DNA from: a virus
Taxonomy: Duplodnaviria; Heunggongvirae; Uroviricota; Caudoviricetes
Direction: 5' to 3' (one strand)
Virus record (IMG/VR): IMGVR_UViG_2698536317_000003
DNA length: 56,811 nucleotides
This document shows positions 1,595 through 56,811 of this stretch, piece after piece (position 1 is the stretch's first letter; each line of letters begins with the position of its first letter). Position numbers and translations under genes: made by a program. The notes under the pieces are model-generated. The model ran no database searches. It was not told the DNA's origin and saw only the letters and a list, made by a program, of their open reading frames with translations.

Positions 1595-4264
1595 TTATTT
1601 TTCGCTTCCAGTCAACTTACTGACAAGCGCTTCAAGTTTTGCGATACGCTCATCCATTGCGGCAATGTTGGCGCGTAGGCTGGCGTTTTCTTCTTCCAGT
1701 TCGGTTACGCGGTTATCCGTTTCGCGTGCCACCTGGACAAGTAAACCAGTCACTGCGGCGTAGTCAACATTGAGGTAACGCGTTTCCTCGCGTAACTCGT
1801 TGCCGTCAGTGGTCGGGCCTTGTAACGCTTCACCGTAATGAGTAAACGATCCCACAGCTTCCGGCAGCGCCTCCATTACCTCCTGAGCGATAACGCCAGC
1901 GTAAGGCAGGCCGTTTTCCTTGAGGGTGTAGGTGTACCCGTTCATTTTACGGATGGCTTCAGTTGCATCACCTATAACCTGAATGTTGTCTTTTAAGTCC
2001 CTGTCTGATGATTGGGTAACTGAAGTGCATGTGATAGTGCCTTCAACCGCAAGCGAAGCAGAACCATCGGAAAGGTATTTAGCCACAAACAGCGTTTTTA
2101 ATGATGTTTGTGCGCCGTTTGTATCAACAGCTTTAACCTCATAATTCAGCGGGGATGATGAACCGCCCCATGTCATCACCTGTACGTTTGCCGAGGTTGT
2201 TGCGTAAGCAATATGCCTTATGAAACGTGTGTGCGTGCTATCAAAGATATAATGACCACTAAAATGATTGTCTGCTGTCCATACGTTTGCTGTATTAAGC
2301 GTTGCAAGTTGACACCAATCCTTGATCGTTCCATTTTCAATACTTCTTGCATAGAATGATGAGTTGCGCCCGGCGAACTGGGTAGCATAGTTACCGCTAA
2401 AGGTGACATGAAAACCACCCGCAACGCCAATACCCAAAGGACCATTGTCACTGCCTGCGATTGGCTTAAACTTCTCTACAGCATCCGTATGCTGATCGTT
2501 CCAGTTTTGCCCAGCATTTATGGCGTAACCTTTAGATGATCCTATCAGGCCATTTATGGTTAGTTTGGGCATCGTCATTGATATGTCTTCACCAACGGTA
2601 ATTCCGTTAAACAGACCTACGCGAGCACCACTACAAATATAATGGAGTCCTTCAGTTGTTGCAGAATAAAAACCACAACGCCCCATTCTGAAATCAAACA
2701 TAACCTGTAGGTTTTTATATGAACCTAAGGGGTCTGATACACCCCACGGTATGATCGTTTCTGTATCTTTACCACTATTATATACAACCTGGGCGGTTGG
2801 TACTTGTACTGTTACGCCCACAGGCAAGCGCATTTTAATAGGGAATGCCCTTGCTTCAACAAAAACAAAGAGCAGGTTATCTTTGTCTTTGCTGGAACTA
2901 CAGATAGAATGTAAAGCGATTTCTTTGTCGGTATAACGATTGTAAAAACCGTAACCTGCATCCTTTCTGTCACTCCACCCGCCAGTCCTTACATACCCGG
3001 AAAAGGTGTTACAGTTCATTGGGTAATTACCAGCGCCAGACACTGTAACAATATCGATCTGATAGCCAGTCAGGTAAGCGTTGTAATAATTGGCGTTTAT
3101 AATTATAGGGTAATACTTACCATCCTCAACGCCTTCCGGGGCTTCGATTGTTATTATCTCGCCACCGCCTATGGTTGGGATATTGATGTTTCTCCTTGTC
3201 TGTTCAGCGTTTTTAGGTTTGAAAGAGTCGGCTATAAATTCGCCGTTTATGTTGAGGCTTGCGTATTTGCTCACGCCGCCAGATCTTAAATGCATTGTTA
3301 ACTGGTCTGGCGAAGAAAGGTTTGTCTCAGGGTATAGTGCACCATAAATACGCTCCGATCCTGATGTACCAACCAAAACGCTGGAAAGAATACCTCCCGC
3401 AACCCATCCGGTAGTCACGTCAGTAGCTCTTTTTAGCGATACATTAGCAAACTGAGGACTATTTGAAGACCCAACGCCCAGGTTTGTTCTTGCTGTGTCT
3501 GCATCTCCTGCACCAGTGCCGCCAGCAGAAATTGAAAGCGGTAGATATTTACTAGCCTCTGAGTCGAAACAACCCCACGTTCCTGAATCATAGACGGTAA
3601 GGAATTTATTTGCGTTTTGAGAGCATACGCGTGTTTCTCCTGTTCTTTGAATAAGCCTGTTTACTTCATCCTTGCGTGCGTGACGTGTCCAGTTCGGTCC
3701 TGATGTTGCGACCCATGTGTAAGTATAAAGTGATCGCGTAGACCAACCGACAAAGACGCCTGCATACGAAGGCGATGTATCCTGCTGACAGATAAATCCA
3801 CTCAAAAATGATTCACCAGCCGCTACGGAAGGAAAACCCTTAGTCGTTTCCTTTATGCGCAAAAAGCCAACGTAAGAAGACGGATTGCCTGATATATCGA
3901 CGCAATCTCGCGGCTCTGGACCCAAGCCAATATTGCTGCCATCTATTGCGCTTGATATTTCATCTTCCTTTTCCTGATAAAAACGAAGCGTTTCTGCTAC
4001 ATCCTGGGCAAGTCCATCAACTGAGATCGAGTCAGAAAGCAGAATGCTAAATTTTGTCCCGGCGGCGATTGCGGGGTTAGCCGCTGGCGTTACTGACAGT
4101 TCAGTACCGCTCTTGATTTCTGTGATGGTAAAGATCTGAATGGGGTTGCTAATAGCAATAAGCGTGCAACCTACACGAATGAGAGAAAGCGGCGCGGAGA
4201 AGTTTGTGCCCGTGCCTTTAACAGTATTGCCGTTGATGGCAATTGTTCCAGTTGTGTAAATCAT
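1595..4264 (-). CDS. Phage tail fibre protein with C-terminal intramolecular-chaperone (peptidase S74-like) domain and terminal coiled coil
   Basis: 889-aa ORF; C-terminal region contains SSDRDLKDNI-type Ser/Lys motif and heptad-rich tail (ELEEENASLRANIAAMDERIAKLEALV) typical of auto-cleaving tail fibre/endosialidase chaperone domains. Confidence 0.65.
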   Translation of the reverse strand: MIYTTGTIAINGNTVKGTGTNFSAPLSLIRVGCTLIAISNPIQIFTITEIKSGTELSVTPAANPAIAAGTKFSILLSDSISVDGLAQDVAETLRFYQEKEDEISSAIDGSNIGLGPEPRDCVDISGNPSSYVGFLRIKETTKGFPSVAAGESFLSGFICQQDTSPSYAGVFVGWSTRSLYTYTWVATSGPNWTRHARKDEVNRLIQRTGETRVCSQNANKFLTVYDSGTWGCFDSEASKYLPLSISAGGTGAGDADTARTNLGVGSSNSPQFANVSLKRATDVTTGWVAGGILSSVLVGTSGSERIYGALYPETNLSSPDQLTMHLRSGGVSKYASLNINGEFIADSFKPKNAEQTRRNINIPTIGGGEIITIEAPEGVEDGKYYPIIINANYYNAYLTGYQIDIVTVSGAGNYPMNCNTFSGYVRTGGWSDRKDAGYGFYNRYTDKEIALHSICSSSKDKDNLLFVFVEARAFPIKMRLPVGVTVQVPTAQVVYNSGKDTETIIPWGVSDPLGSYKNLQVMFDFRMGRCGFYSATTEGLHYICSGARVGLFNGITVGEDISMTMPKLTINGLIGSSKGYAINAGQNWNDQHTDAVEKFKPIAGSDNGPLGIGVAGGFHVTFSGNYATQFAGRNSSFYARSIENGTIKDWCQLATLNTANVWTADNHFSGHYIFDSTHTRFIRHIAYATTSANVQVMTWGGSSSPLNYEVKAVDTNGAQTSLKTLFVAKYLSDGSASLAVEGTITCTSVTQSSDRDLKDNIQVIGDATEAIRKMNGYTYTLKENGLPYAGVIAQEVMEALPEAVGSFTHYGEALQGPTTDGNELREETRYLNVDYAAVTGLLVQVARETDNRVTELEEENASLRANIAAMDERIAKLEALVSKLTGSEK

Positions 4265-4423
4265 CGCAATGACTCCATTATGTTAATTAACGGAATAATT
4301 CTACCATTTTGTGATCTTTGTTGCATTTTCTGCTTACACAAAATGTATTTGTTGATTTATGTCAATGTTGCGTAAATGCGGTTTATGGATACTACAAACA
4401 ACGAAACAACGGAGGGTAAGACA

Positions 4424-4663
4424 ATGAAAGGCTTTAAAAATATAGCTATCGCTGCAATGGTTGCTGGTCTGGTTGGTTGTGCTGATATGCCGAAACGTGA
4501 ATGCACGGCAACTTACCAAACTGGCGGTAATGAGTATGCGGTTGCAGTCTTCGGTGTCGCGGATGTTGGCGGTCATAAAATGGTTAAGGCCGGGTATCCG
4601 TTTAACTTCCAATGGGTAAGCGTTGACAACTTCAATAAAACGGATTGCCCGGAACTAAATTAA
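4424..4663 (+). CDS. Small lipoprotein (signal peptide plus lipobox LVGC), opposite strand to tail genes; candidate Cor/Llp-like superinfection-exclusion protein
   Basis: GGAGGG RBS 8 nt before ATG at 4424; MKGFKNIAIAAMVAGLVGC signal/lipobox. Confidence 0.55.
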   Translation: MKGFKNIAIAAMVAGLVGCADMPKRECTATYQTGGNEYAVAVFGVADVGGHKMVKAGYPFNFQWVSVDNFNKTDCPELN

Positions 4664-5292
4664 TCATAGGCATCGGTTTTGATGGCGGTTATGGCGTTAC
4701 CGTGGTTTATATAGCCAGTAGGATTATATACGCCACCAGCCGTAACGCCATAGATTCTTGTTTTGCTGCCGTTATAGTATGCGGCAGCATAAATAGACGC
4801 TGAACCTTGCCCAACAACCGCGCCCAACAATTGCGGGCAAATTGCGTATGATCCTGAAAGTGTCTGATCTATATTTATACCCCCACTATTACCTGGTGAA
4901 CCGACTGTAACAATGTCCGTTAATATTCTTGATTCATTAGTTAGCACCAGTTCCCCCGAAGCGTTCCAGATAGCCATGCCCCACTTAGGGAGCGAAGGTG
5001 GGAAAATAGAAAACACATATACAGTAGCAGTATAGGTATTCTTAGTGTCCCTACCAAAAGCGCAAAGTATCTGCCCAGAGTTGGCCCTGCTAACGCTTGC
5101 TGTGACACCGCCTATACTTGTTTTTACGAATACCATTACAGGCTTGTTTGTTGGGACTGCAATGTATCTTGATGTGTTTTGCGTTGGTGGGCAAGAAATA
5201 TCTTGCCTTGTGTATAGACATATGGGCGTCGCTTCCGGTGTAACGAAAATATTCCCGTTACTTAATCTTAAATAAGCTCCGAATGTTGCCAT
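4660..5292 (-). CDS. Hypothetical tail-associated protein (MATFG paralogue, 210 aa)
   Basis: ORF between J and tail fibre; shares N-terminal MATFG motif with upstream neighbour. Confidence 0.4.
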   Translation of the reverse strand: MATFGAYLRLSNGNIFVTPEATPICLYTRQDISCPPTQNTSRYIAVPTNKPVMVFVKTSIGGVTASVSRANSGQILCAFGRDTKNTYTATVYVFSIFPPSLPKWGMAIWNASGELVLTNESRILTDIVTVGSPGNSGGINIDQTLSGSYAICPQLLGAVVGQGSASIYAAAYYNGSKTRIYGVTAGGVYNPTGYINHGNAITAIKTDAYD

Positions 5293-5603
5293 TAAGCCGC
5301 CTCCGCAAATATAACAATTTCACACTGTGATGCGGGCCATATATTGGCTCCTACTGTATTACCTGCCGATGAAATTGATACGGTTCCGCCAGAAATTGTA
5401 ATCCTTCTACGCGTCGTTGATAACGTACCATGATCAAGCGTCATGCCGTATGATAATTTGCATCCGGTAGGAACGGTAAAGCTATATGTGCCTGATACTT
5501 GTCCTGAGGATAGCGAAATATAACCAACAACTACTGAAGGTTTGATTCCGTAGTTATTTGGATTTCCGTTGGCATCCCAGGTGGCTATGCCGAAAGTAGC
5601 CAT
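5292..5603 (-). CDS. Hypothetical tail-associated protein (MATFG paralogue, 103 aa)
   Basis: ORF immediately downstream of J; N-terminus MATFGIATWDANGN. Confidence 0.4.
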   Translation of the reverse strand: MATFGIATWDANGNPNNYGIKPSVVVGYISLSSGQVSGTYSFTVPTGCKLSYGMTLDHGTLSTTRRRITISGGTVSISSAGNTVGANIWPASQCEIVIFAEAA

Positions 5604-5654: not shown

Positions 5655-8600
5655 TTACCATGATCCGGTAATTCGTCCAATTTGGACGCGCAACCTACCG
5701 TTTCCATCCCTAACGGAAATGGTTGTATTTGTTAGTTTCATCGCGCCCTCACCACTTACAGAACCGTAGTTTTCAAATGTGCCTGATTTATCCAGCTTCC
5801 AGCCTGTGCTATTGGAAACATAGTTGTTTGATTGAATGTATGAACCAATTTTTGCATTAGTGATTGACGCGTCTTTAATAAACGCCTCGCGCACATACAT
5901 TGCACCGTTAGACACATAGAAAGGCGTTGTATATGTGCCGTTTGCTGCGGTCATCAATACGAAGCGGTCAACAAGGAAGATACACTGCGATTGAACGTTA
6001 GTACCGTTTCCAGTCAGCCCAAGCGACATACCTGTTGCATACTTCATGCCGTTGTTGTCGGTTGCCAGCTTGATGGAATACGTCGCATCGACATTACCTT
6101 TGAAGTCGGTTAACGCTTTTGACGTCGTTTCTATCGCTGTTGTGTTCCCGTTAACGGTCACTGTTAGCTGATCGATTTTGCTTGATAATGCCTCGTCAGC
6201 CGTTGCCATAGACTGTGACCATTCTGTAATACTTGAGTTTACGGAATCGAAAGACGCTGAGATCTGGACGAATTTTTCAGCGCTTGATGCTTCATGCGTA
6301 GAAAGCGCCGTTGATACCTCAGACACCTTCGAGTTAATCGTACTGGTAAGCGATGAGTTAAGGCTACTTATCGCGTCAGTGCGTGCCTTCGTTTCGTCTG
6401 CAATTGCCTTGTCAATACGGGTCACGTTGCTTGTAACTTTGCCATCAAGGGTTGAAATTGACGCATTCACGCCACTGATGGCTTGTGCTCTGGCGCTGGC
6501 CTCATCAGCAATCGCCTGGTCCAGTCTGCTAACTTCGGATTCAGTGTTGCTTTCGAGGGTGTTAATGCTCGCATTCACTCCACTGATAGCTTCGGTTCTT
6601 GCGCTGGTTTCGTTGGCAATAGCCTGATCCAAACGTTTAACGCTGGCGTCGGTTTTCTTGTCGAGCGCTGAAATGCTTGCGTTAACGTCGCTCACTGCCT
6701 GGCTGCGTGCGCTGGTTTCGTCGGCGATGGCCTGATCAAGGCGGGAAACACTCGCTTCGGTTTTCTTATCAAGATCCGTGATCGATGCTTTTACCACGCT
6801 AACCGCTTCCGCTGTAGCCTTTTTCTCTTCAGCGATAACATTGTCAATACGGTCAATTTGCGCGTTGGTTTCTTTGCGTCCTTTCTTGTATTGGGCAGTA
6901 AGAGTAACACGCGTGTTGGTTTGAGCGATTGAGTTGTTAATCAGAGCAATCGAGGCGTTTTGCAGGCTTGCTTTGGTCTGGCTTATTTCGTCGCTGTTCT
7001 TGTCAACGTTGTTTTCAACCTTACCCAGTTCGGCGCTGATTCCAGATATAGCCTGCGCACGGGCGCTTGACTCGTCAGCAATAGCCTGGTCCAAGCGTTT
7101 GACGCTGGCGTTTGTGTTACTTTCGAGCGTTGTTAAATCAGCTTTGACCTCTGTTATTGCGTCGCTTCTTGCCTGAGTTTCGTCAGATATTGCCTTATCG
7201 AGTCTGCTCACGCTGGCGTCGGTTTTGCTTTCAAGATTGCTTATTGAGGCATTAACGCCGCTGATTGCCTGCGCACGGGCGCTTGATTCGTCGGCAATTG
7301 CTTGATCAAGACGGTTCACGCTGGCGTCAGTTTTCTTGTCAAGATCAGCGATCGATGCGTTCACGTTATTAATTGCTTCTGCGCGGGCGCTTGATTCGTC
7401 TGCCACTGCGCGTTCCACGCTGGAGATCTGACCCTTAAGGTTGGAATCCATCGTGTTCATTTCTGCCGTGATGGTTTTCAGCGATTCAGCCGTGGCCCGC
7501 TTCTCTTCGGCAATAACGTTGTCGATGCTGTCAATCTGCGCGTTTGTTTCTGATTGCCATTTCTTGTACTGTGCAGTGAGCGTAACCCGCGTGTTGGTCT
7601 GCGCGAGAGAGTTATTAATCAGCGCCAAAGATGCGTTTTGCAGGCTTGCTTTTGCTTGCGCCAGTTCGCTGTCGATTCTTTCGCTGGATACCTCTAGCGA
7701 GTCAATCCTTACCTCATGTTGCCCAATACCATCGGTGTTTTCACCAACCTTTTTATAAAGATCTTCCGTCTCTTTTTTCAGCGTGTCAGTGTCAGCTTTT
7801 ATTTCACCTGTTTCTGTGATTAAGCTGTCAGTGTCAGTCCTCAATTCGTCAGTGATGTTTGTCAGGTTGTCAGTTGCAGTTTTTAGGTTGTCAGTAGCGT
7901 TTTTAAGGTCATTTGTGGCGCTTTCGATAAGGTCGGCACGGTCGCCAAGATCTTTAATGTCGCCAATCATGTCCTTGAACTGTTCTGACTCCATGACATC
8001 CTTCATCACGTAGTCGCTGATTTCGTCGAAGTTTTCAGTCGGTTTTCCTGATGCCTCAACGAAGTCTGACACACCGAAAGCGTTACGCGTGCGCACATAA
8101 ACGTAATATTTATGGCCCGTGTTCATGCCGCCAAAAGTCCATTGGTAGCCTCGCCCGGTGAATTGCGCCAAAGTTGTTACTTTTGACGGGTCAGTGATCT
8201 GATTTTCACCTGAGTAGTAAAACTCATATGCTGTATCAGTTGTCAGGGTTGTTTTGCTGATCGGATACACTGTTGCCTGGAAAACGCCAGGAACCCAATT
8301 AACACCAATCGGGGCGGCTGGCGCACCAATGACCAGATCCACAATACTTTCCGCACCCTTCATGCCAGTGTCATTACGCCCGCGAATACCAAGCGTGTAG
8401 CTGCCAGCGTCGAGGCCATAAAAATCATAGCGGTAGTTCGTGGTTTCATAAGTTGCCACTACACGCCCATCGGCGTTATATACGCGAATTTCAAAGGTCA
8501 GGCGATGCGTTGTTGTCTGTGTTTCCCACGTTGCGCGACATTGAACAGTTTCAGAACCAACATTTAACACCTTCAGGTTTTCGATGTTCGGCACGCGGAA

Positions 8601-10439
8601 GTGATTAAGCGTGTCGTTGTTTACCTCAAAGATTGCGCCTTCATCGACTACAGCCTGTTTGTGAGGATCGTGCTGTGCAGCCTCAATGGTGTACACGCTG
8701 TTGTTTTCGGTTTCCGCTACGCTGGTAATTCGACACAGAACGGGTTTTGCAGATTCAGTCGATACGGCAAATACGGTTCCGTTACGAATCCATGCGGGCG
8801 CTGCCGCAAGGGTAATATTGTTTCCGTTAACTCCAGTGATCTGATGTTTTTTAAACTTGCCGTCGCTGTCCAGTAAGCTGATAGTGTCACCAGTCGCCAC
8901 CAGGTCAGAATCAACCTTGTCTACAGTTATCACCTTCCCGTTATTCGCCACGACGCGACCGCCTAAACGAGCGCCAGCGCGGTTATTGTCGAGTATCTCG
9001 ATAATATCCCCTGGCGTAAAGTGAATCGCGTCACGCGCCATTTTAAACGTGAATTTTGACGGCTCGCGTTTTGCTGTTTCTATCAGCCACTTGCCCGCGC
9101 GGTATGCTTGCCCGCGTGATGTGCACCCGAACGCCTCTAACGTGGTTTCGTTGTAACCATCACGGGCGATCAGTTCATCGTCTGCTACATACTCTTTTGA
9201 TTGCTCCCATCCGTTTTCCGGGTCAGTCCATGATACGATCACGGCGTTGTAGCATTCTGCGCGGGCGATACTTGAACGAGTAAACGCGCCATCAACGACA
9301 TTTGCATTTGTAATGGTGGCGATCGGGTCTAGTGGTGCATCAATCATCACGGTAAGGCGTTGCCCGTCCCATAACGCGATACCCCTGAACATCCCGGCGA
9401 TATTGTCCAGTAAGTCGCGGGCGCTCATTTGCTCTGTGATGTAAGCGTTAAGCGTCATGCGAGGCTCAAGGCCGCCGTAGCCATCATCAACCAACTGGTC
9501 GCAGTATTGAGAAAGCGTATATAATGCGCCGTCGTCAACGTCAATATAACCAGCGTGACGAGCAAGGCCGAAACGCTCGTTTTTAACCAGATAGCGGAAG
9601 ATCCATGCTGGGTTATTGGTGTACGCCTGTTTGAAGCCGCCAAGCCACAAACCGGAATAAGTGCGCTTTTCCGGGTCGTAGTTATCAGGAATATCAACAA
9701 TCAGCCCGCGAAGGTGATAGGTGCGGGTAGGCGTGTCAGCGTACTGATCATGGTCAATTACCGCGCCAGCTACAGCGGTGTGAGGATAAGACAAATTATC
9801 GTCGATTATTTCGCTGTAGCTACTCCATCGCGTATCATTCTGCAACAGATCGCTTGTGCTATCAGCGGTTACACGGCGAACGCGAATATCAAACGGTTTT
9901 TCATCTGGTGCATTGATAATATGCGCTTCAAGATATTCTCCGCTGATCTTACCTGGGCCTATAGTAACGTCTTTAACAAGCGTCCACGTAGAAGAAGACG
10001 AAGGCTTCACGTCAATCATCATCATAACCGATGTGTTATGTTGATTGCTTTGCTCGTCAGATTGTACAAGTGAATCGACGCCGATATTCAGGCGAACGCG
10101 GTTTACGTTAGGATCGGAAACGGTCCTGATTATTGGTGTATCGTGTTTAACCTGTGCGTTAACAATAACGGTTGATTCAATGGCGTTAAAACCGTTAATC
10201 GGTGATTGATCTATCGTACCATTGCGCCACGCTACGCTAATACCGGGGATGCTGGTATTGCCGTTCGCGTCAGTTACAGGGGTGTCATTAAGCATTACGC
10301 TGTTTAATGGCGCATTGGTATTAACAGGACCATAAATCGGACCTTCTGAAATAATGTCGAGTACACGATAAAACTGTTTGTGATATAGATTATCGTTAAT
10401 TAAAGTTGGTGTTTTTGCTTTGCCGCCGCCACTACTCAT
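5655..10439 (-). CDS. J: Host specificity / central tail fibre protein, lambda J-like, with long internal coiled-coil repeat region
   Basis: 1594-aa ORF downstream of I/K/L homologues; N-terminal region J-like; central tandem peptide repeats (RLDQAIADESSARAQAISGVNASI...). Confidence 0.85.
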   Translation of the reverse strand: MSSGGGKAKTPTLINDNLYHKQFYRVLDIISEGPIYGPVNTNAPLNSVMLNDTPVTDANGNTSIPGISVAWRNGTIDQSPINGFNAIESTVIVNAQVKHDTPIIRTVSDPNVNRVRLNIGVDSLVQSDEQSNQHNTSVMMMIDVKPSSSSTWTLVKDVTIGPGKISGEYLEAHIINAPDEKPFDIRVRRVTADSTSDLLQNDTRWSSYSEIIDDNLSYPHTAVAGAVIDHDQYADTPTRTYHLRGLIVDIPDNYDPEKRTYSGLWLGGFKQAYTNNPAWIFRYLVKNERFGLARHAGYIDVDDGALYTLSQYCDQLVDDGYGGLEPRMTLNAYITEQMSARDLLDNIAGMFRGIALWDGQRLTVMIDAPLDPIATITNANVVDGAFTRSSIARAECYNAVIVSWTDPENGWEQSKEYVADDELIARDGYNETTLEAFGCTSRGQAYRAGKWLIETAKREPSKFTFKMARDAIHFTPGDIIEILDNNRAGARLGGRVVANNGKVITVDKVDSDLVATGDTISLLDSDGKFKKHQITGVNGNNITLAAAPAWIRNGTVFAVSTESAKPVLCRITSVAETENNSVYTIEAAQHDPHKQAVVDEGAIFEVNNDTLNHFRVPNIENLKVLNVGSETVQCRATWETQTTTHRLTFEIRVYNADGRVVATYETTNYRYDFYGLDAGSYTLGIRGRNDTGMKGAESIVDLVIGAPAAPIGVNWVPGVFQATVYPISKTTLTTDTAYEFYYSGENQITDPSKVTTLAQFTGRGYQWTFGGMNTGHKYYVYVRTRNAFGVSDFVEASGKPTENFDEISDYVMKDVMESEQFKDMIGDIKDLGDRADLIESATNDLKNATDNLKTATDNLTNITDELRTDTDSLITETGEIKADTDTLKKETEDLYKKVGENTDGIGQHEVRIDSLEVSSERIDSELAQAKASLQNASLALINNSLAQTNTRVTLTAQYKKWQSETNAQIDSIDNVIAEEKRATAESLKTITAEMNTMDSNLKGQISSVERAVADESSARAEAINNVNASIADLDKKTDASVNRLDQAIADESSARAQAISGVNASISNLESKTDASVSRLDKAISDETQARSDAITEVKADLTTLESNTNASVKRLDQAIADESSARAQAISGISAELGKVENNVDKNSDEISQTKASLQNASIALINNSIAQTNTRVTLTAQYKKGRKETNAQIDRIDNVIAEEKKATAEAVSVVKASITDLDKKTEASVSRLDQAIADETSARSQAVSDVNASISALDKKTDASVKRLDQAIANETSARTEAISGVNASINTLESNTESEVSRLDQAIADEASARAQAISGVNASISTLDGKVTSNVTRIDKAIADETKARTDAISSLNSSLTSTINSKVSEVSTALSTHEASSAEKFVQISASFDSVNSSITEWSQSMATADEALSSKIDQLTVTVNGNTTAIETTSKALTDFKGNVDATYSIKLATDNNGMKYATGMSLGLTGNGTNVQSQCIFLVDRFVLMTAANGTYTTPFYVSNGAMYVREAFIKDASITNAKIGSYIQSNNYVSNSTGWKLDKSGTFENYGSVSGEGAMKLTNTTISVRDGNGRLRVQIGRITGSW
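6290..7700. repeat. Tandem in-frame coding repeats inside J-like gene (short units nested in a longer duplication)
   Basis: Repeated DNA blocks such as gcgcttgattcgtcggcaattgc...; protein blocks ASLQNAS(L/I)ALINNS(L/I)AQTNTRVTLTAQYKK occur twice. Confidence 0.7.
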
Positions 10440-14323: not shown

Positions 14324-14343
14324 TTGATTGCGTGGGGTGAGTT

Positions 14344-14598
14344 ATGAAATTGGTGGCGATTGGCAAAAACCTGAAAGCACAGAAAAACGCACAGGACCGG
14401 ATCATCAAAAAGGGCAAGGCTTTATTAAATGCTTTCCTGAGAAAAGAGGCCACCCCCAAAAAATTACGCGATGGCTACGGTTATAAATTTGATATTAACC
14501 CCGACTGGCGGTTATTCAGCGAAGATTTAAAGGCGTGGTTAATTATCGACCATCTGGAATATAACAGACACTGTGGGGTTAAAGGGGCGCATAAGTAA
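14344..14598 (+). CDS. Moron protein F (84 aa), basic, unknown
   Basis: ORF co-directional with E between M and tape-measure genes. Confidence 0.45.
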   Translation: MKLVAIGKNLKAQKNAQDRIIKKGKALLNAFLRKEATPKKLRDGYGYKFDINPDWRLFSEDLKAWLIIDHLEYNRHCGVKGAHK

Positions 14599-14732
14599 GG
14601 CGGGCATGAAGGGCGATAAATTCACCCGGCGGGGAACTGGAATGTTTGACAGGTAATTTTGGATAGGGTGTATCGCGCGGAATGGTTGTTTATAAATACG
14701 AAAATAGCCCCGGCATTGTACCGGGGTTTGGT

Positions 14733-47193: not shown

Positions 47194-47841
47194 TTATGGC
47201 AGGTTTACGATCTTCGCATCAACTACCACGCCTATGATTTTTGATTCTGGATTCATAGGGATTGGCGGATACAGCGGATTGAGCGAACGTAAAAGCCTTT
47301 GACCTCCATCAATAATCAACTGTTTAAACGTCGGTATCTGCCCTTCCTCAAGCTGGGCTATAACCAGTTTGCCGTCAATAGCTGGCGCGTGCGGGTCCAC
47401 GAGTATCATCGTCCCCGCCGGGATGCTCAACCCCTGCGGCGCGTTCATTGATTCACCTTTGGCAACCAGCCAGTAACTATCATCTGAACAAATAACGCTA
47501 GTCGTAACGTGTGGTAATGCTGATCGCCTTGTGTCATCCATATTGTTTACTGTATCCTTCCAGTCAATAACCGGGTAACTACCTAAATCACGCGGCGGTG
47601 CGGCCTGAAGTGTATTAGAAACAGAATCATCAATGACCATACCATCATGTGTAACAGTGAACTGCCGACGACCAAGCGCCCGCATAATCCGCGCAATATC
47701 TTCAAGATTTGGCTCGCGGCGACCGTTCAGCCAGTGTGACAGGCCGCCTTTAGTTATCCCCATGAGATCTGCGAGTGAATCCTGACTCATGCCCTGCGCC
47801 CGCATGAGCTGCTTTGCTAAGTCATACCATTTTGTTTTCAT
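47194..47841 (-). CDS. CI-like repressor (HTH_XRE N-terminus, LexA/S24 peptidase-like C-terminus)
   Basis: N-terminal HTH (SQDSLADLMGITKGGLSHWLNG) and C-terminal GESM...K autocleavage-type domain. Confidence 0.85.
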   Translation of the reverse strand: MKTKWYDLAKQLMRAQGMSQDSLADLMGITKGGLSHWLNGRREPNLEDIARIMRALGRRQFTVTHDGMVIDDSVSNTLQAAPPRDLGSYPVIDWKDTVNNMDDTRRSALPHVTTSVICSDDSYWLVAKGESMNAPQGLSIPAGTMILVDPHAPAIDGKLVIAQLEEGQIPTFKQLIIDGGQRLLRSLNPLYPPIPMNPESKIIGVVVDAKIVNLP

Positions 47842-51730: not shown

Positions 51731-53146
51731 ATGGTAACTGAGCAAATGAACTCACTACGGCAGGAACGTGAAGCGTCAGTTATCGGCGGGCTGCTGTTAG
51801 GCGGCCTAACTCCTAACGCACAAGATGTTCTCGCCACTCTTGATCCTGAAGTGTTCACGATTCCGCTGTATAAACGTGCGTTTGAAGTTATCCGGGCGCA
51901 AGCCAGAAACAGAAATCTTATCGACGCGTTATTGGTTGGCGATGAGATTGGCAATGAAAACTTTGTACCGCTAATGCAAACGGCGCGATCGTGCCCGTCT
52001 GCTGCCAACCTGAAGGGATACGCACAGCTACTACGTGAAGAGCACCAGCGGCGGCAGATGTTGGAACTCATCGACGATATGCGCTACAAACTGGAAACGG
52101 GGACGCTTGAGGTCGTCAAAGAGACGATGAAAGACTTTGATTCCCGGTATTCAAAATTGAAGGTAACGAAAGACAAGATCATTCCGGTGTTGTTGCGCGA
52201 TGCGGTACAGGAATACACGGAGGTGTTAAGCAAACGCATGGAATGCGGTGTCAATTCTGACAACATCAAAACAGGGATAGAACCACTCGACGAAATGTTA
52301 GGCGGCATTAACGCTACTGATCTGGTGCTTCTCGCCGGGCGCCCTGGGTCTGGTAAATCTGCGTTGGCGCTGGCAATTGCCCGCGCTGCTGCTGAACGCC
52401 CTTACCCTGGCAGCAAGGATCAGCGGGTTGGCGTTTTGTTCTTCACGCTTGAAATGTCACTCGATCAGATGACTGAACGCGCTATAGCTGGCGCTGGTAA
52501 TTTATCAACCGACTGTCTGCGTAATCCGGTAAAACTTGATGATGAGGGGTGGGCGCATGTTGGTCAGGGTATGAGCGCACTTGCTAATCTTGACGTGTGG
52601 ATCGTTGACGCATCGCAGTTAACGGTTGAGGAAATACGCGCCACAACGGAACGGATGAAACAGGAGCATCCCAACCTGGGTATGGTAATGATTGACTACA
52701 TCGGGTTGATGAAGCTGGCTAAGGCTGAACGTCATGATCTCGCCGTAGGGCAATTATCATGGTCGTTGAAGATGATGGCGAAAGAATTGCGCGTACCGGT
52801 GTTGGCGCTGGCGCAATTATCCCGCCGCGTTGAGGAACGACCGAACAAGCGTCCTAACAATTCTGATCTGCGCGATTCCGGTAATCTTGAGCAGGACGCT
52901 GACAGGATAATCATGGTATACCGCGATGGCTACTACGATGAGCAGTCTGTAGCCCGCGAATATATGGAAATCATTGTATCTAAAAACCGTCACGGCAAAT
53001 CTGGCACTGTTTACCAGCGGTTTGATGACAACGGCAATATCTTACCATGCGACCAGGCCCGCGCGGCTGCGGCGTGTATTCAGTCTATGAATCATCGTAC
53101 AAGCAGATTTAACCAACGAAACAACCAGAATAACGCATCCTTTTAA
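51731..53146 (+). CDS. Replicative DNA helicase (DnaB-like)
   Basis: Walker A GRPGSGKS, SDLRDSG and RecA-fold motifs; 471 aa. Confidence 0.9.
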   Translation: MVTEQMNSLRQEREASVIGGLLLGGLTPNAQDVLATLDPEVFTIPLYKRAFEVIRAQARNRNLIDALLVGDEIGNENFVPLMQTARSCPSAANLKGYAQLLREEHQRRQMLELIDDMRYKLETGTLEVVKETMKDFDSRYSKLKVTKDKIIPVLLRDAVQEYTEVLSKRMECGVNSDNIKTGIEPLDEMLGGINATDLVLLAGRPGSGKSALALAIARAAAERPYPGSKDQRVGVLFFTLEMSLDQMTERAIAGAGNLSTDCLRNPVKLDDEGWAHVGQGMSALANLDVWIVDASQLTVEEIRATTERMKQEHPNLGMVMIDYIGLMKLAKAERHDLAVGQLSWSLKMMAKELRVPVLALAQLSRRVEERPNKRPNNSDLRDSGNLEQDADRIIMVYRDGYYDEQSVAREYMEIIVSKNRHGKSGTVYQRFDDNGNILPCDQARAAAACIQSMNHRTSRFNQRNNQNNASF

Positions 53147-53962: not shown

Positions 53963-54190
53963 ATGAACAAGGATTTAGAATTGACCGTGGAGGATTTAAG
54001 CACGATCGCGGAATACAAGCGCGGCGGTGATCCTGATAAACCTGTTACGGTTGATATGAAATATTTAAAAGGCGCTTTTATGACTTCTTCAAGATTGATA
54101 AGTCTTAAAGCAATTATAAAGGCGCGCTGGGAAAGTTGGCAGGAATACAAAGCGAAAAATAAGGTGAAAAGAAATAATGCGGCAAATTAG
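53963..54190 (+). CDS. Hypothetical protein (75 aa)
   Basis: GGGGGAATC RBS; upstream of ninB. Confidence 0.4.
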   Translation: MNKDLELTVEDLSTIAEYKRGGDPDKPVTVDMKYLKGAFMTSSRLISLKAIIKARWESWQEYKAKNKVKRNNAAN

Positions 54191-54605
54191 ATTTGAGATA
54201 GTCAACGACGCCGTGAAAGAAAACGCTATCAGGCAGATAAGAGAGATCCAGCCTGATAGCAAAAGCCCGCTGATAATTACCATCCAGGAGAAAACCCGCT
54301 CGCTAAGCCAAAACGCGTTGCTTTGGGCGCTGTTAACCGACATTAGCGATCAGGTTAATTGGTACGGTAAGAAGCTGTCGCCGGAAGACTGGAAAGCGGT
54401 ATTTACTGCCGGGCTTAAGAAATATGGCGTCGTCCCTAACCTGGATAAATCCGGCTTTGTTGTATTGGGGACATCAACCAGCCGGATGAGTAAATCAGAA
54501 TTCAGTGAACTAATCGAGCTGATCTACTCGTTCGGCGCTGAACATGATGTTCAATGGTCTGGCGATACGAAATTAAACGAGGAATTCATAAAACGCTGGG
54601 GGTAA
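54177..54605 (+). CDS. ninB: Recombination protein NinB
   Basis: Strong similarity to recalled lambda NinB (ITIQEKTRSLSQNALLWALLTDIS...VVPNLDKSGFVVLGTSTSRMSKSEF). Confidence 0.85.
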   Translation: MRQIRFEIVNDAVKENAIRQIREIQPDSKSPLIITIQEKTRSLSQNALLWALLTDISDQVNWYGKKLSPEDWKAVFTAGLKKYGVVPNLDKSGFVVLGTSTSRMSKSEFSELIELIYSFGAEHDVQWSGDTKLNEEFIKRWG

Positions 54606-55436: not shown

Positions 55437-55654
55437 TGGATAAGATCGGGACAATACTTATTAACCGTGAGCAAGTGCAAAAAATGTTAGGCGGGCTTAG
55501 CAAGTCCGCCTTTTTTAAGCTCGTTAAAAAATGGAAAGAAGCGGGAACTCCTTTCCCTGAACCTGTAAAGGGGATGCCAGCATTAAAGCGCGGGGGATCT
55601 CTTTACCGTTATCAGGACGTTATTTCATTTTGTAAATCGATGGGCTTCATGTAG
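55436..55654 (+). CDS. Excisionase-like / small DNA-binding protein
   Basis: 72-aa ORF adjacent to and converging on the integrase gene. Confidence 0.45.
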   Translation: MDKIGTILINREQVQKMLGGLSKSAFFKLVKKWKEAGTPFPEPVKGMPALKRGGSLYRYQDVISFCKSMGFM

Positions 55655-56811
55655 TAATCAGCCAGTTTATTCATCGCCTCGATTTGTTCCCTCACGTAAT
55701 CATATTGATCATAGATAGCCATCATCCCCGCCAGTTTATGACCCAAAACCTTTTCGGCTACGTGCGGCGCAACGCCAAGCGCTGAAAGGTTTGTCCTTAC
55801 AGTGCGGCGTAGATCGTGACACGACCACGGCTCGCCGCCCATCCTTAGCATCAAATCCCTTGCGGCTGTTTTCGGCACGCTCCTGTCTACCGCTTCATCC
55901 CTTCCAGAAAGCACGGGAACGAAGATAAAATTAAAGCCGTGCAAATCCATAGCCTCACGCAATAAATCAACGCTAACGGCAGATAAACCGCGTTTAAACT
56001 CATTTCTGTTCTTACTCAATGCACCCGGCACGGTCCACACACAATTATCAAGATCAAAATGCTCGCGTTTTGCGTTTGTTAGCTCGCTTGTTCTGCATCC
56101 GGTGAATATAATCAGCTTCATCAATATCTGATTTAGCCGCGCCATTTTTGAGCTATCTATAATGCTGATCAGATGGTGAATCTCTTGTATTGATAAAACG
56201 CGCTTCCTTTGCGCCGGGTTTTTGCCAACGTCTTTCACGCGTAGCAATGATATGTCGTCACGCTCCACGCGGCGGCGGCGCATGGCATATTTTATAACCG
56301 CCTTCATCCTGTTTAAGACTATCCCGGCCTGAACGGGCGCGCCACCATTAGCTACCTTTCTAAAAATTCCCTCCCACATTATGGCGTCCATATCATCAAC
56401 AATATAGCTACCGCATGGTTTGACAATATGCTTGCTTAACATCGCTTCGACTTGCTTATGGTTGACCATGTTTCTTGCCTGCGGTGATTCCATATATTCC
56501 CTGACAATATCTTCAACGGTCGCCCGTGTCGTAACGCGGGAAAGGTGCATTCTTTTTACGATCGATGGATCTCGCCCTGAGTTTAATATTTCCTTATGTT
56601 CCGCCACCGCCGCGCGGGCTTCTTTGAGCGTTATTTCTCCGTAAGTGCCAATCTTCATCCGTCGCGGCTTGCCGTTGAATCGGTAGCGATACTGGAAAGA
56701 TATAACGCCGTGCGGGCTTATCCTGGCAGACAATCCGCCCGCGTCCGGGACTTCTTCCGGGCCGTCATATGGCTTGCCGTGGATGTTTCGTAATTTGGTA
56801 TCTGTAAGCAT
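55612..56811 (-). CDS. Tyrosine integrase, P4-type
   Basis: 399-aa ORF with arm-binding N-terminus (MLTDTKLRN...ISFQYRYRFNGK) and C-terminal catalytic domain; 5-prime end at window edge. Confidence 0.9.
   Translation of the reverse strand: MLTDTKLRNIHGKPYDGPEEVPDAGGLSARISPHGVISFQYRYRFNGKPRRMKIGTYGEITLKEARAAVAEHKEILNSGRDPSIVKRMHLSRVTTRATVEDIVREYMESPQARNMVNHKQVEAMLSKHIVKPCGSYIVDDMDAIMWEGIFRKVANGGAPVQAGIVLNRMKAVIKYAMRRRRVERDDISLLRVKDVGKNPAQRKRVLSIQEIHHLISIIDSSKMARLNQILMKLIIFTGCRTSELTNAKREHFDLDNCVWTVPGALSKNRNEFKRGLSAVSVDLLREAMDLHGFNFIFVPVLSGRDEAVDRSVPKTAARDLMLRMGGEPWSCHDLRRTVRTNLSALGVAPHVAEKVLGHKLAGMMAIYDQYDYVREQIEAMNKLADYYMKPIDLQNEITS

Follow-up and report, generated by a model that had tools for sequence, protein, structure and literature searches.

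The virus record IMGVR_UViG_2698536317_000003 of IMG/VR (Caudoviricetes; a stretch of 56,811 nucleotides, hereafter the window) carries on its minus strand a J-like central tail fibre gene whose interior is built from repeated segments, raising the questions of whether these repeats are genuine, what structure they encode and whether they change the length of the fibre from one phage to another. An original prediction, made from the sequence alone, had proposed a coiled-coil segment of in-frame units, prone to recombination and hazardous for assembly. Here we report that the J repeats are real, far beyond chance, and that they probably (with a probability of about 0.82) form a long three-stranded helical shaft of the central tail fibre, varying in length by the gain and loss of 36-residue units. 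Demonstrated repeats, a helix prediction, a polymorphism in length and one exact recombination event carry this reading.

Nested repeats in the J gene

The repeats are organised in three nested levels, namely heptads of 7 amino acids (aa), units of 36 aa (108 nucleotides, nt) and superblocks of 226 aa (678 nt), which together span aa 841–1367 of the 1594 residues of J and are followed by a more degenerate distal segment:

5655–10439, minus strand: J-like central tail fibre / tip attachment gene, a single long open reading frame (ORF) of 1594 aa
7752–7919, minus strand (aa 841–896): eight heptads (21 nt), in the proximal acidic part of the shaft
6987–7664, minus strand (aa 926–1151): superblock 1, made of A-block 1, four canonical units and a linker
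7449–7664, minus strand (aa 926–997): A-block 1, 72 aa
7017–7448, minus strand (aa 998–1141): the four canonical 36-aa units of superblock 1
6987–7016, minus strand: 10-aa linker ENNVDKNSDE between the superblocks
6339–6986, minus strand (aa 1152–1367): superblock 2, made of A-block 2 and four canonical units
6771–6986, minus strand (aa 1152–1223): A-block 2, 72 aa
6339–6770, minus strand (aa 1224–1367): the four canonical 36-aa units of superblock 2, scoring 56–70 bits against a hidden Markov model (HMM) of the unit and predicted as helix by AlphaFold2 (AF2)
6105–6338, minus strand (aa 1368–1445): distal shaft segment, a degenerate repeat with a period of ~16 aa

Since the periods of 21, 108 and 678 nt are all multiples of three, every repeat is in frame. 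The canonical units are of the type DKKTDASVNRLDQAIADESSARAQAISGVNASISNL, while each 72-aa A-block (ASLQNASLALINNSLAQTNTRVTLTAQYKK...IDNVIAEEKRATAE...) is itself composed of two degenerate units. The heptads follow the type ATDNLKx (ATNDLKN, ATDNLKT, ATDNLTN, ITDELRT, DTDSLIT, ETGEIKA, DTDTLKK and ETEDLYK), and their region, like the linker GKVENNVDKNSDE, is acidic and contains glycine.

The repeats had been anticipated at 6290–7700, in agreement with the exact limits of the 36-aa array (6339–7664). They had also been assigned to the central third of J, with a longer block duplicated about 690 bp apart; the repeats and the duplication both stand, but the former occupy the third quarter of the protein and the copies are spaced by 678 nt. 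The heptad level, just beyond the anticipated interval, had been missed, as had the links to the mEpimmI phages and to the F-pyocin/T1-type helical shaft described below.

Several signals support this anatomy. A DNA repeat search returned families of direct repeats spaced by 108 nt and its multiples across 6351–7420, together with a 171-nt pair (6804–6974 and 7482–7652; 79% identity) lying 678 nt apart. Protein autocorrelation peaked at lags of 36, 226, 72 and 190, and within aa 926–1367 the identities reached 167 of 406 at lag 36 (36 ± 5 in shuffled sequences) and 130 of 216 at lag 226 (20 ± 4). The two superblocks aligned with 69% identity over 482 nt (blastn E 3e-50) and 61% identity over 213 aa (blastp E 6e-92). 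Tandem Repeats Finder detected the heptads alone (21-nt period at 7848–7909), missing the 108-nt units because of their divergence (44–72% nt identity). The longest exact repeat within 6200–7800 measures 20 nt, and the low DNA identity of units that are up to 81% identical as protein indicates old paralogues held by selection at the protein level. Compared with the relative mEp010, codons 900–1440 of J show 112 synonymous and 26 non-synonymous differences, and purifying selection appears to act on the J frame.

A predicted near-straight helical bundle

The hydrophobic periodicity is 3.59–3.60 in the 36-aa array and 3.52 over aa 830–925, which include the heptad stretch, so that the array departs from a canonical heptad coiled coil (period 3.5), to which only aa 830–925 come close. 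Among 335 distinct units collected from relatives, the core falls on positions 4, 8, 11, 15, 18, 22, 26, 29, 33 and 36, i.e. ten positions per 36 residues, with Glu18 present in 100% of units, Arg22 in 99%, and Ala14, Ala21 and Ala25 in 98–99%. On sequence grounds, the array thus appears to be a non-heptad helical bundle of the 18/5 type. Undistorted helices have this period of 36/10, which in coiled-coil geometry yields a near-straight bundle with no left-handed supercoil; with its period of 3.6, the array would therefore form a nearly straight three-helix bundle.

Structure prediction points in the same direction. AF2 was run on the monomer of aa 1224–1594, both as a single sequence and with a 57-sequence alignment. 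The four units of aa 1224–1367 were modelled as one helix from the single sequence, with a predicted local distance difference test (pLDDT) of 79–93, and remained helical with the alignment (pLDDT 95–98), aa 1225–1364 being helix in both runs. The anticipated coiled-coil segment of in-frame units was thus recovered as a continuous helix over the units modelled, with a non-heptad period. At ~0.148 nm per residue, a unit would measure 5.3 nm, the 36-aa array ~65 nm and the whole helical span ~90 nm.

We also observed that P0010, an unrelated-looking metagenomic protein of 891 aa, has its own 36-aa repeats of the form ‘LNxAIxxExxARAxL’. The 36-residue Glu/Arg helical unit may be a fibre module of wider occurrence than the mEpimmI J proteins.

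Recombination between units and the spectrum of shaft lengths

Genes with 84–88% DNA identity to J, over 66–96% of its length, were found in mEp010, mEp013, mEp021, mEp044, mEp515, mEp554 and MagusPhagus. The first six of these phages form the mEpimmI group, ~54-kb temperate siphoviruses from human faeces described in 2025 (Front Microbiol, PMC11893012), and the mEpimmI relatives are annotated with the same L/K/I/J neighbours, placing J, as judged from its sequence, within this group. The group's description already mentioned that its J proteins vary in size and hold ‘repeats of different length (positions 950-1475)’ (PMC11893012). The existence of repeats is therefore not new; that description neither defines the unit nor gives its periodicity, and it reports neither an order of units nor a recombination event.

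The most direct evidence for a recombinational origin of length differences comes from two members of this group. The J gene of mEp515 is 100% identical to that of mEp021 over its first 3.3 kb and last 0.7 kb, and corresponds to it minus exactly 1002 nt, in frame (334 aa). Two units of 78% identity (DSKVTSNVTRIDKAIADETKARTDAIS...) contain the deletion junction, and the crossover is confined to 5 nt beside a 35-nt perfect match. In sequence terms, this pair demonstrates a change of length by recombination. Both phages form plaques and both depend on OmpA (PMC11893012); the phages therefore tolerate a 334-aa difference in the shaft while keeping the same receptor.

This variation extends throughout the relatives, which were gathered with the full-length J as query, a repeat-region query having yielded 15 proteins only as low-complexity words saturated the candidates. 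The J proteins of the seven phages range from 1393 to 1828 aa, with 10 matches to the unit HMM in the window and mEp010, 13 in mEp021, mEp044 and mEp554, and 5 in mEp515, mEp013 and MagusPhagus. Among 128 close relatives, A-blocks and canonical units combine into 23 arrangements with 4 to 13 canonical units per J, exactly two A-blocks in 125 of them, and two successive sets of one A-block and four units (A-R4-A-R4, as in the window) as the commonest pattern (32/128). Clustering of the units by type raised this diversity to more than 40 arrangements and revealed a conserved order, h...ef/A/...gd: the first set opens with type h and closes with e-f, the second closes with g-d or i, and the interior units vary. 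Measured from the end of the Ig_J_second domain to the YSIKL motif, the shaft spans 445–865 aa and falls into 20 length classes (121–128 close relatives). The differences from the window are mostly multiples of 36, or 36n plus 7, 14 or 28, so that both the 36-aa and the heptad levels vary. The comparison of J lengths in relatives, suggested at the outset as a check, was thus informative, and together with the mEp515/mEp021 deletion it strongly supports the prediction that recombination alters fibre length between relatives.

Three other interpretations of the array were discarded. A helical hairpin pairing superblock 1 with superblock 2 is ruled out by relatives with 8+5 units, 5+5 units or a single superblock, and concerted evolution of the units by the fact that unit types keep their positions across phages. 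We saw no sign at the locus of a diversity-generating or phase-variation mechanism.

Reliability of the repeat count

Repetitive DNA of this kind had been flagged as an assembly hazard, and the repeat count could in principle reflect a collapse or an expansion during assembly. Some drafts of relatives do end within the array. Both P0004 and P0005, of which P0005 is a cluster of 43 sequences, comprise a C-terminal fragment that starts inside it at a contig end, and many ‘partial’ C-terminal (DUF1983) fragments exist. Such breaks could alternatively stem from several J-bearing prophages within one genome. For the allele of the window, however, an artefact is extremely improbable and the assembly risk low, as its units have at most 72% DNA identity and 20 nt of exact repeat, the identical 1594-aa protein was found on 11 contigs from NCBI and from independent Logan assemblies, and its arrangement is the commonest among relatives. 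The hazard may concern drafts of related phages and is weakly supported for this allele. In addition, J proteins of 1644–1813 aa occur on contigs of 4.8–4.9 Mb, i.e. of whole-chromosome size, and the length variation is therefore no short-read artefact.

Antisense open reading frames across the array

Three ORFs run along the opposite strand of the array:

6178–6627, plus strand: antisense ORF of 149 aa, TTG start; internal stop in mEp010
6934–7176, plus strand: antisense ORF of 80 aa, TTG start; internal stop in mEp010
7441–7758, plus strand: antisense ORF of 105 aa, TTG start; start codon replaced by TTA in mEp010

With lengths of 80–149 codons, one or more of them could be taken for a real overlapping gene. 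All three use TTG starts and lie in a single, stop-poor antisense frame, which contains 7 stops in 6200–7800 versus 17 and 36 in the other frames. A stop in that frame needs a sense Gln, His or Tyr codon after a codon ending in T or C, and the array contains hardly any His or Tyr. As this frame is offset by one base from J, with coincident third positions, counts by codon position could not discriminate between the two frames, and ORF integrity in mEp010 was used instead: two of the ORFs are interrupted there and the third lacks a start codon. Mass spectrometry, by contrast, revealed J itself in mEp021 virions (PMC11893012). A genuine overlapping gene is consequently scarcely credible, and the earlier dismissal of these ORFs as spurious by-products of the repeats holds.

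Identity of J and comparison with known central fibres

The domains that frame the repeats, all five detected with Pfam and scoring above their gathering thresholds, are the following:

aa 88–214: FNIII-A_GpJ
aa 335–491: Phage-tail_3
aa 609–707: Ig_J
aa 709–811: Ig_J_second
5724–6137, minus strand (aa 1435–1572): Phage_Tail_Tip (DUF1983; E 1.7e-42), followed by a T1-gp33-like C-terminus

No curated Pfam domain covers aa 812–1434, the stretch that holds the repeats; the matches of SF-assemblin, DUF4806 and DUF3584 (Pfam), and a precomputed ‘FAM81B’ match, were sub-threshold and were treated as generic coiled-coil noise. J matches PHROG 31, ‘central tail fiber J’ (E = 0), its aa 1–851 match the solved lambda gpJ (chain 8iyk_J; E 4e-184), and it is 100% identical to the Escherichia coli protein P0016, a ‘phage tail tip fiber protein’. 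Directly upstream lie Phage_min_tail, Phage_tail_L, NLPC_P60/JAB and tail assembly protein I (PHROG 32) genes, with a TMP_3 tape measure farther up. This domain set and tail-tip synteny identify J as a probable lambda-type tip attachment protein, or central tail fibre. By analogy with mEp021, whose J was found in virions (PMC11893012), it would form a homotrimer in the virion tail tip.

The closest counterparts are the J proteins found in mEpimmI phages and MagusPhagus, which represent the same gene (up to 93% protein identity) and share the hub, the 36-aa units, the A-blocks and the gene neighbourhood. Within this set, the window allele joins a mEp010-like A-R4-A-R4 shaft to a short T1-like C-terminus that is neither of the LamB type nor clearly of the OmpA type (PMC11893012). 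Lambda gpJ (PDB 8iyk, 8xci) shares the hub, the FNIII/Ig domains and the Phage_Tail_Tip fold; with 1132 aa, however, it has no helical shaft, its straight fibre being beta throughout, and it bears its own LamB-binding domain.

A second line of kinship leads to the F-type pyocins, for which we relied on the F7 study (bioRxiv 2026, PMC12874032) and the F2 study (Adv Sci 2026, PMC13455828, PDB 25vf). Their central fibre has a three-stranded alpha-helical shaft at residues 921–1083, where the side fibres dock (PMC13455828, PMC12874032), and displays the same order as J: a hub, an FNIII pair reaching ~815, a proximal region of ~100 aa, the helical shaft and a tip, with the same residue numbering up to ~920. 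The homology to J runs from FNIII-2 to the tip, and the F2 fibre matches J aa ~1282–1557 with E values of 3e-34 (single sequence) and 4e-88 (profile of diverse C-terminal homologues). The Glu/Arg i,i+4 pair and the small-residue motif of the pyocin also occur in J, which likewise has two small genes directly downstream (PyoF11 and PyoF12 in the pyocin). In contrast, the pyocin shaft measures 163 aa and has no reported internal repeats, whereas the helical span of J reaches ~600 aa with nested repeats, and a fold switch has been demonstrated for the pyocin only.

The distal part of J is also homologous to gp33 of phage T1 (PDB 9l9p), with E values of 9e-55 (single sequence) and 6e-133 (profile). 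The last ~195 aa of J, including the tip, match chain 9l9p_S (E 1e-47), the final ~60 aa are near-identical, and both proteins have a helical segment of the ‘IADETQAR’ type upstream of the tip. The C-terminal 350 aa of gp33 were too flexible to be resolved, and an alpha/beta fibre of ~37 nm was predicted (Viruses 2025, PMC11945409). Unlike J, gp33 (1172 aa) has a far shorter shaft with its own ~34-aa duplication and neither a 36-aa array nor a duplicated A-block. The AF2 helix and the homology to a solved example suggest that J belongs to the central fibres of the F-pyocin/T1 type with an alpha-helical shaft.

Proposed architecture of the shaft

We therefore propose that the shaft would be inserted after the FNIII/Ig domains, by which the tail tip is closed, and before the distal Phage_Tail_Tip domain. 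It would comprise a short run of heptads and, after it, two superblocks, each with its 72-aa A-block and four 36-aa units. In each unit, ten core positions including the Glu18/Arg22 pair would give the period of 3.6, hence a near-straight three-helix bundle extending ~5.3 nm. The units would be old paralogues with a conserved protein sequence and diverged synonymous sites, between which homologous recombination, within or between phages, would delete or duplicate units or whole superblocks in frame. Relatives would thus hold shafts of very different lengths on the same hub, with interchangeable receptor-binding ends. The shaft might then act as an adjustable spacer, setting the reach of the receptor-binding tip beyond the tail.

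Some points weigh against this architecture. The trimeric state, the straightness and the full extension of the shaft derive from the sequence and from AF2 monomers, and the published electron-microscopy note gives tails of ~130 nm with no mention of a long fibre (PMC11893012). The units of this allele share at most 20 nt of exact identity, so that recombination within this genome should be rare; variation may arise mostly between co-infecting relatives. Lastly, no sign that length affects host range emerged, mEp021 and mEp515 using the same receptor despite their 334-aa difference.

A possible fold switch in the shaft

The homology to the F7 pyocin raises a further possibility. In this pyocin, the entire 163-aa shaft turns into a beta-prism upon target binding, thereby ejecting the tape measure protein, and Gln substitutions at small positions abolish killing (PMC12874032). 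Each strand carries the motif SxSxxMxxLxS, in alternating orientation, with buried Glu/Arg pairs spaced by 4 (PMC12874032).

The distal segment of J, just beyond the array, is a plausible candidate for such behaviour. AF2 extended the helix through aa 1444 without an alignment; with the 57 sequences, the helix ended at aa 1364 and aa 1368–1445 became five beta-strands (pLDDT ~86–95). A change of fold between shallow and deep alignments was reported in AlphaFold for 21 of 24 phage fibres (PMC12874032), and the behaviour of J aa 1368–1445 mirrors it. An HMM alignment to the F2 fibre showed this segment to be homologous to the distal end of the pyocin shaft, reaching the conserved ‘AMYSVKL’ motif. 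When the beta part was compared with the PDB using Foldseek, the top matches were the open-state fibre of lambda gpJ (probability 1.0); the F-pyocin entries were not retrieved in this search, so that it yields no superposition on the beta-prism of the pyocin. The distal end of the shaft (aa ~1368–1445, possibly more) may accordingly share the coiled-coil-to-beta-prism switch of its pyocin homologue.

Extending this scenario, the entire 36-aa array could be a metastable spring in which each unit passes from coiled coil to one beta-hairpin layer of a beta-prism upon receptor binding. The fibre would then shorten about five-fold and power the tail tip's opening, the number of units tuning the stroke and the stored energy rather than a passive reach. 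The precedent of a whole pyocin shaft that switches is in its favour, as are the motifs. Using a regular expression that is our own encoding of the published text (PMC12874032), the forward motif was found at unit position 21 in 10/10 units and the reverse one at position 6 in 9/10, A-blocks also carry a forward/reverse pair, and aa 926–1434 contain 33 matches versus 8.6 ± 2.8 in shuffled sequences (maximum of 20 in 2000 shuffles). Furthermore, E18/R22 is invariant in the units, the HMM aligned J aa ~1282–1450, i.e. two canonical units plus A-block-like columns, on the F2 shaft at 917–1083, and AF2 flips aa 1368–1445 between helix and strands. However, with the alignment the canonical units of aa 1224–1367 stayed helical despite 33–50 aligned rows, and a single-sequence AF2 helix is weak evidence. 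The motif matches are not independent, since the units are paralogous and amount effectively to one observation, the chance of one coiled-coil unit of this composition matching both motifs being estimated at ~0.07. Lambda and T5 function with no such switch, and a switch of 440 aa would be about three times bigger than any observed. We thus consider it unlikely that each unit of the array switches in this way, and improbable that the nested array as a whole works as a spring that switches fold, with a size dictated by the copy number of its units.

Side fibres and putative receptor-binding genes

The genes downstream of J bear on how the fibre may be equipped:

5292–5603, minus strand: ORF of 103 aa, PHROG 557, directly downstream of J
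4660–5292, minus strand: ORF of 210 aa, PHROG 425, with homologues in T1-like, HK446 and mEpX1 phages
4376–4663, plus strand: Cor superinfection-exclusion homologue, after the 210-aa ORF
1595–4264, minus strand: side tail fibre of 889 aa with a C-terminal Peptidase_S74 intramolecular chaperone domain

In the F2 and F7 pyocins, trimers of the side fibre attach to the shaft at a kink that carries negative charge (PMC13455828, PMC12874032). On this precedent, the A-blocks of J, or the Gly-containing acidic kinks preceding them, could be docking sites for side tail fibres, the two superblocks providing two tiers and the units acting as spacers. The constancy of two A-blocks in 125/128 relatives while units vary from 4 to 13, an A-block-like element conserved in distant Enterobacter homologues, the acidic, Gly-containing linker and heptad region and the 889-aa side-fibre gene are in line with this possibility. 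Against it, the profile alignment places the A-block-like columns at F2 ~972–1027 and not at the kink (953–956), and mEp515 and MagusPhagus have a single A-block and yet form plaques. Docking on these sites is accordingly quite doubtful. A strict equivalence between the A-block and the pyocin kink was rejected, as the A-block aligns downstream of the kink.

The last ~60 aa of J (window 5655–5840), near-identical to T1 gp33, are unlike the ends, of LamB type and of OmpA type, found in the described mEpimmI phages. The arrangement of the 103-aa ORF, the 210-aa ORF and Cor resembles add-on receptor binders of the PyoF11/PyoF12 type. By analogy, the C-terminus of J and these downstream genes hint at an FhuA-type receptor, which we offer as a guess.

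The surrounding prophage

The window is almost wholly occupied by one ~55-kb E. coli prophage of the mEpimmI type:

1–1446 region, left edge of the window: host abgT
47194–47841: CI-like repressor
51731–53146: DnaB
54177–54605: NinB
55612–56811, right end of the window: integrase

With abgT on the left, the integrase on the right and the CI-like repressor, DnaB and NinB genes, the window fits the description of the mEpimmI phages. No tRNA genes were found in the window. Both mEp021 and mEp515 have an HNH endonuclease gene between tail assembly gene I and J (942–1508 in both records, L002 and L003), an insert that is absent from the window, where the I homologue reaches to 10454 and J begins at 10439, and from the other relatives. 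Within the tail cluster, the opposite strand bears a gene for a ParE-like toxin together with a small partner ORF (5842–6096 in the record L009), at a site corresponding to the gap between the tape measure and the minor tail genes of the window (~14330–14700). An ORF with an ANT domain separates the minor tail gene from the L homologue. The ParE-like pair and the ANT-domain ORF look like moron-type insertions.

Significance for mEpimmI phages and non-contractile tails

Modular, recombining repeats in a phage fibre are an ordinary theme, previously mentioned in one sentence for the mEpimmI group. To this our analysis adds the anatomy in three levels, the period of 3.6 together with a buried Glu/Arg pair, an order of unit types that is conserved, a spectrum of quantised lengths, an exact recombination event and the homology to a fold-switching pyocin shaft. 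For annotators, the plus-strand ORFs are artefacts and the J length differences in the mEpimmI group are real; a precise definition and order of the units serves the comparison of the many mEpimmI-type prophages of E. coli.

If the array did act as a spring, each unit would span 5.3 nm as a coiled coil until adsorption and would thereafter form a single beta-hairpin layer (~1 nm) of a beta-prism, and unit gain or loss by recombination would tune how far the fibre reaches as well as the stroke and energy opening the tail tip. The near-isogenic pair mEp021/mEp515, separated by its in-frame deletion and sharing a receptor, would then be a ready test of the effect of shaft length. Should the array turn out to take part in the switch, the locus would gain greatly in interest, the energy storage of the homologous pyocin shaft for envelope penetration being a discovery of 2026 (PMC12874032). 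With dozens of natural shaft-length variants (445–865 aa) on one conserved hub, including this cultured pair, the mEpimmI group could reveal what shaft length determines in non-contractile tails: reach, stroke or neither of them.

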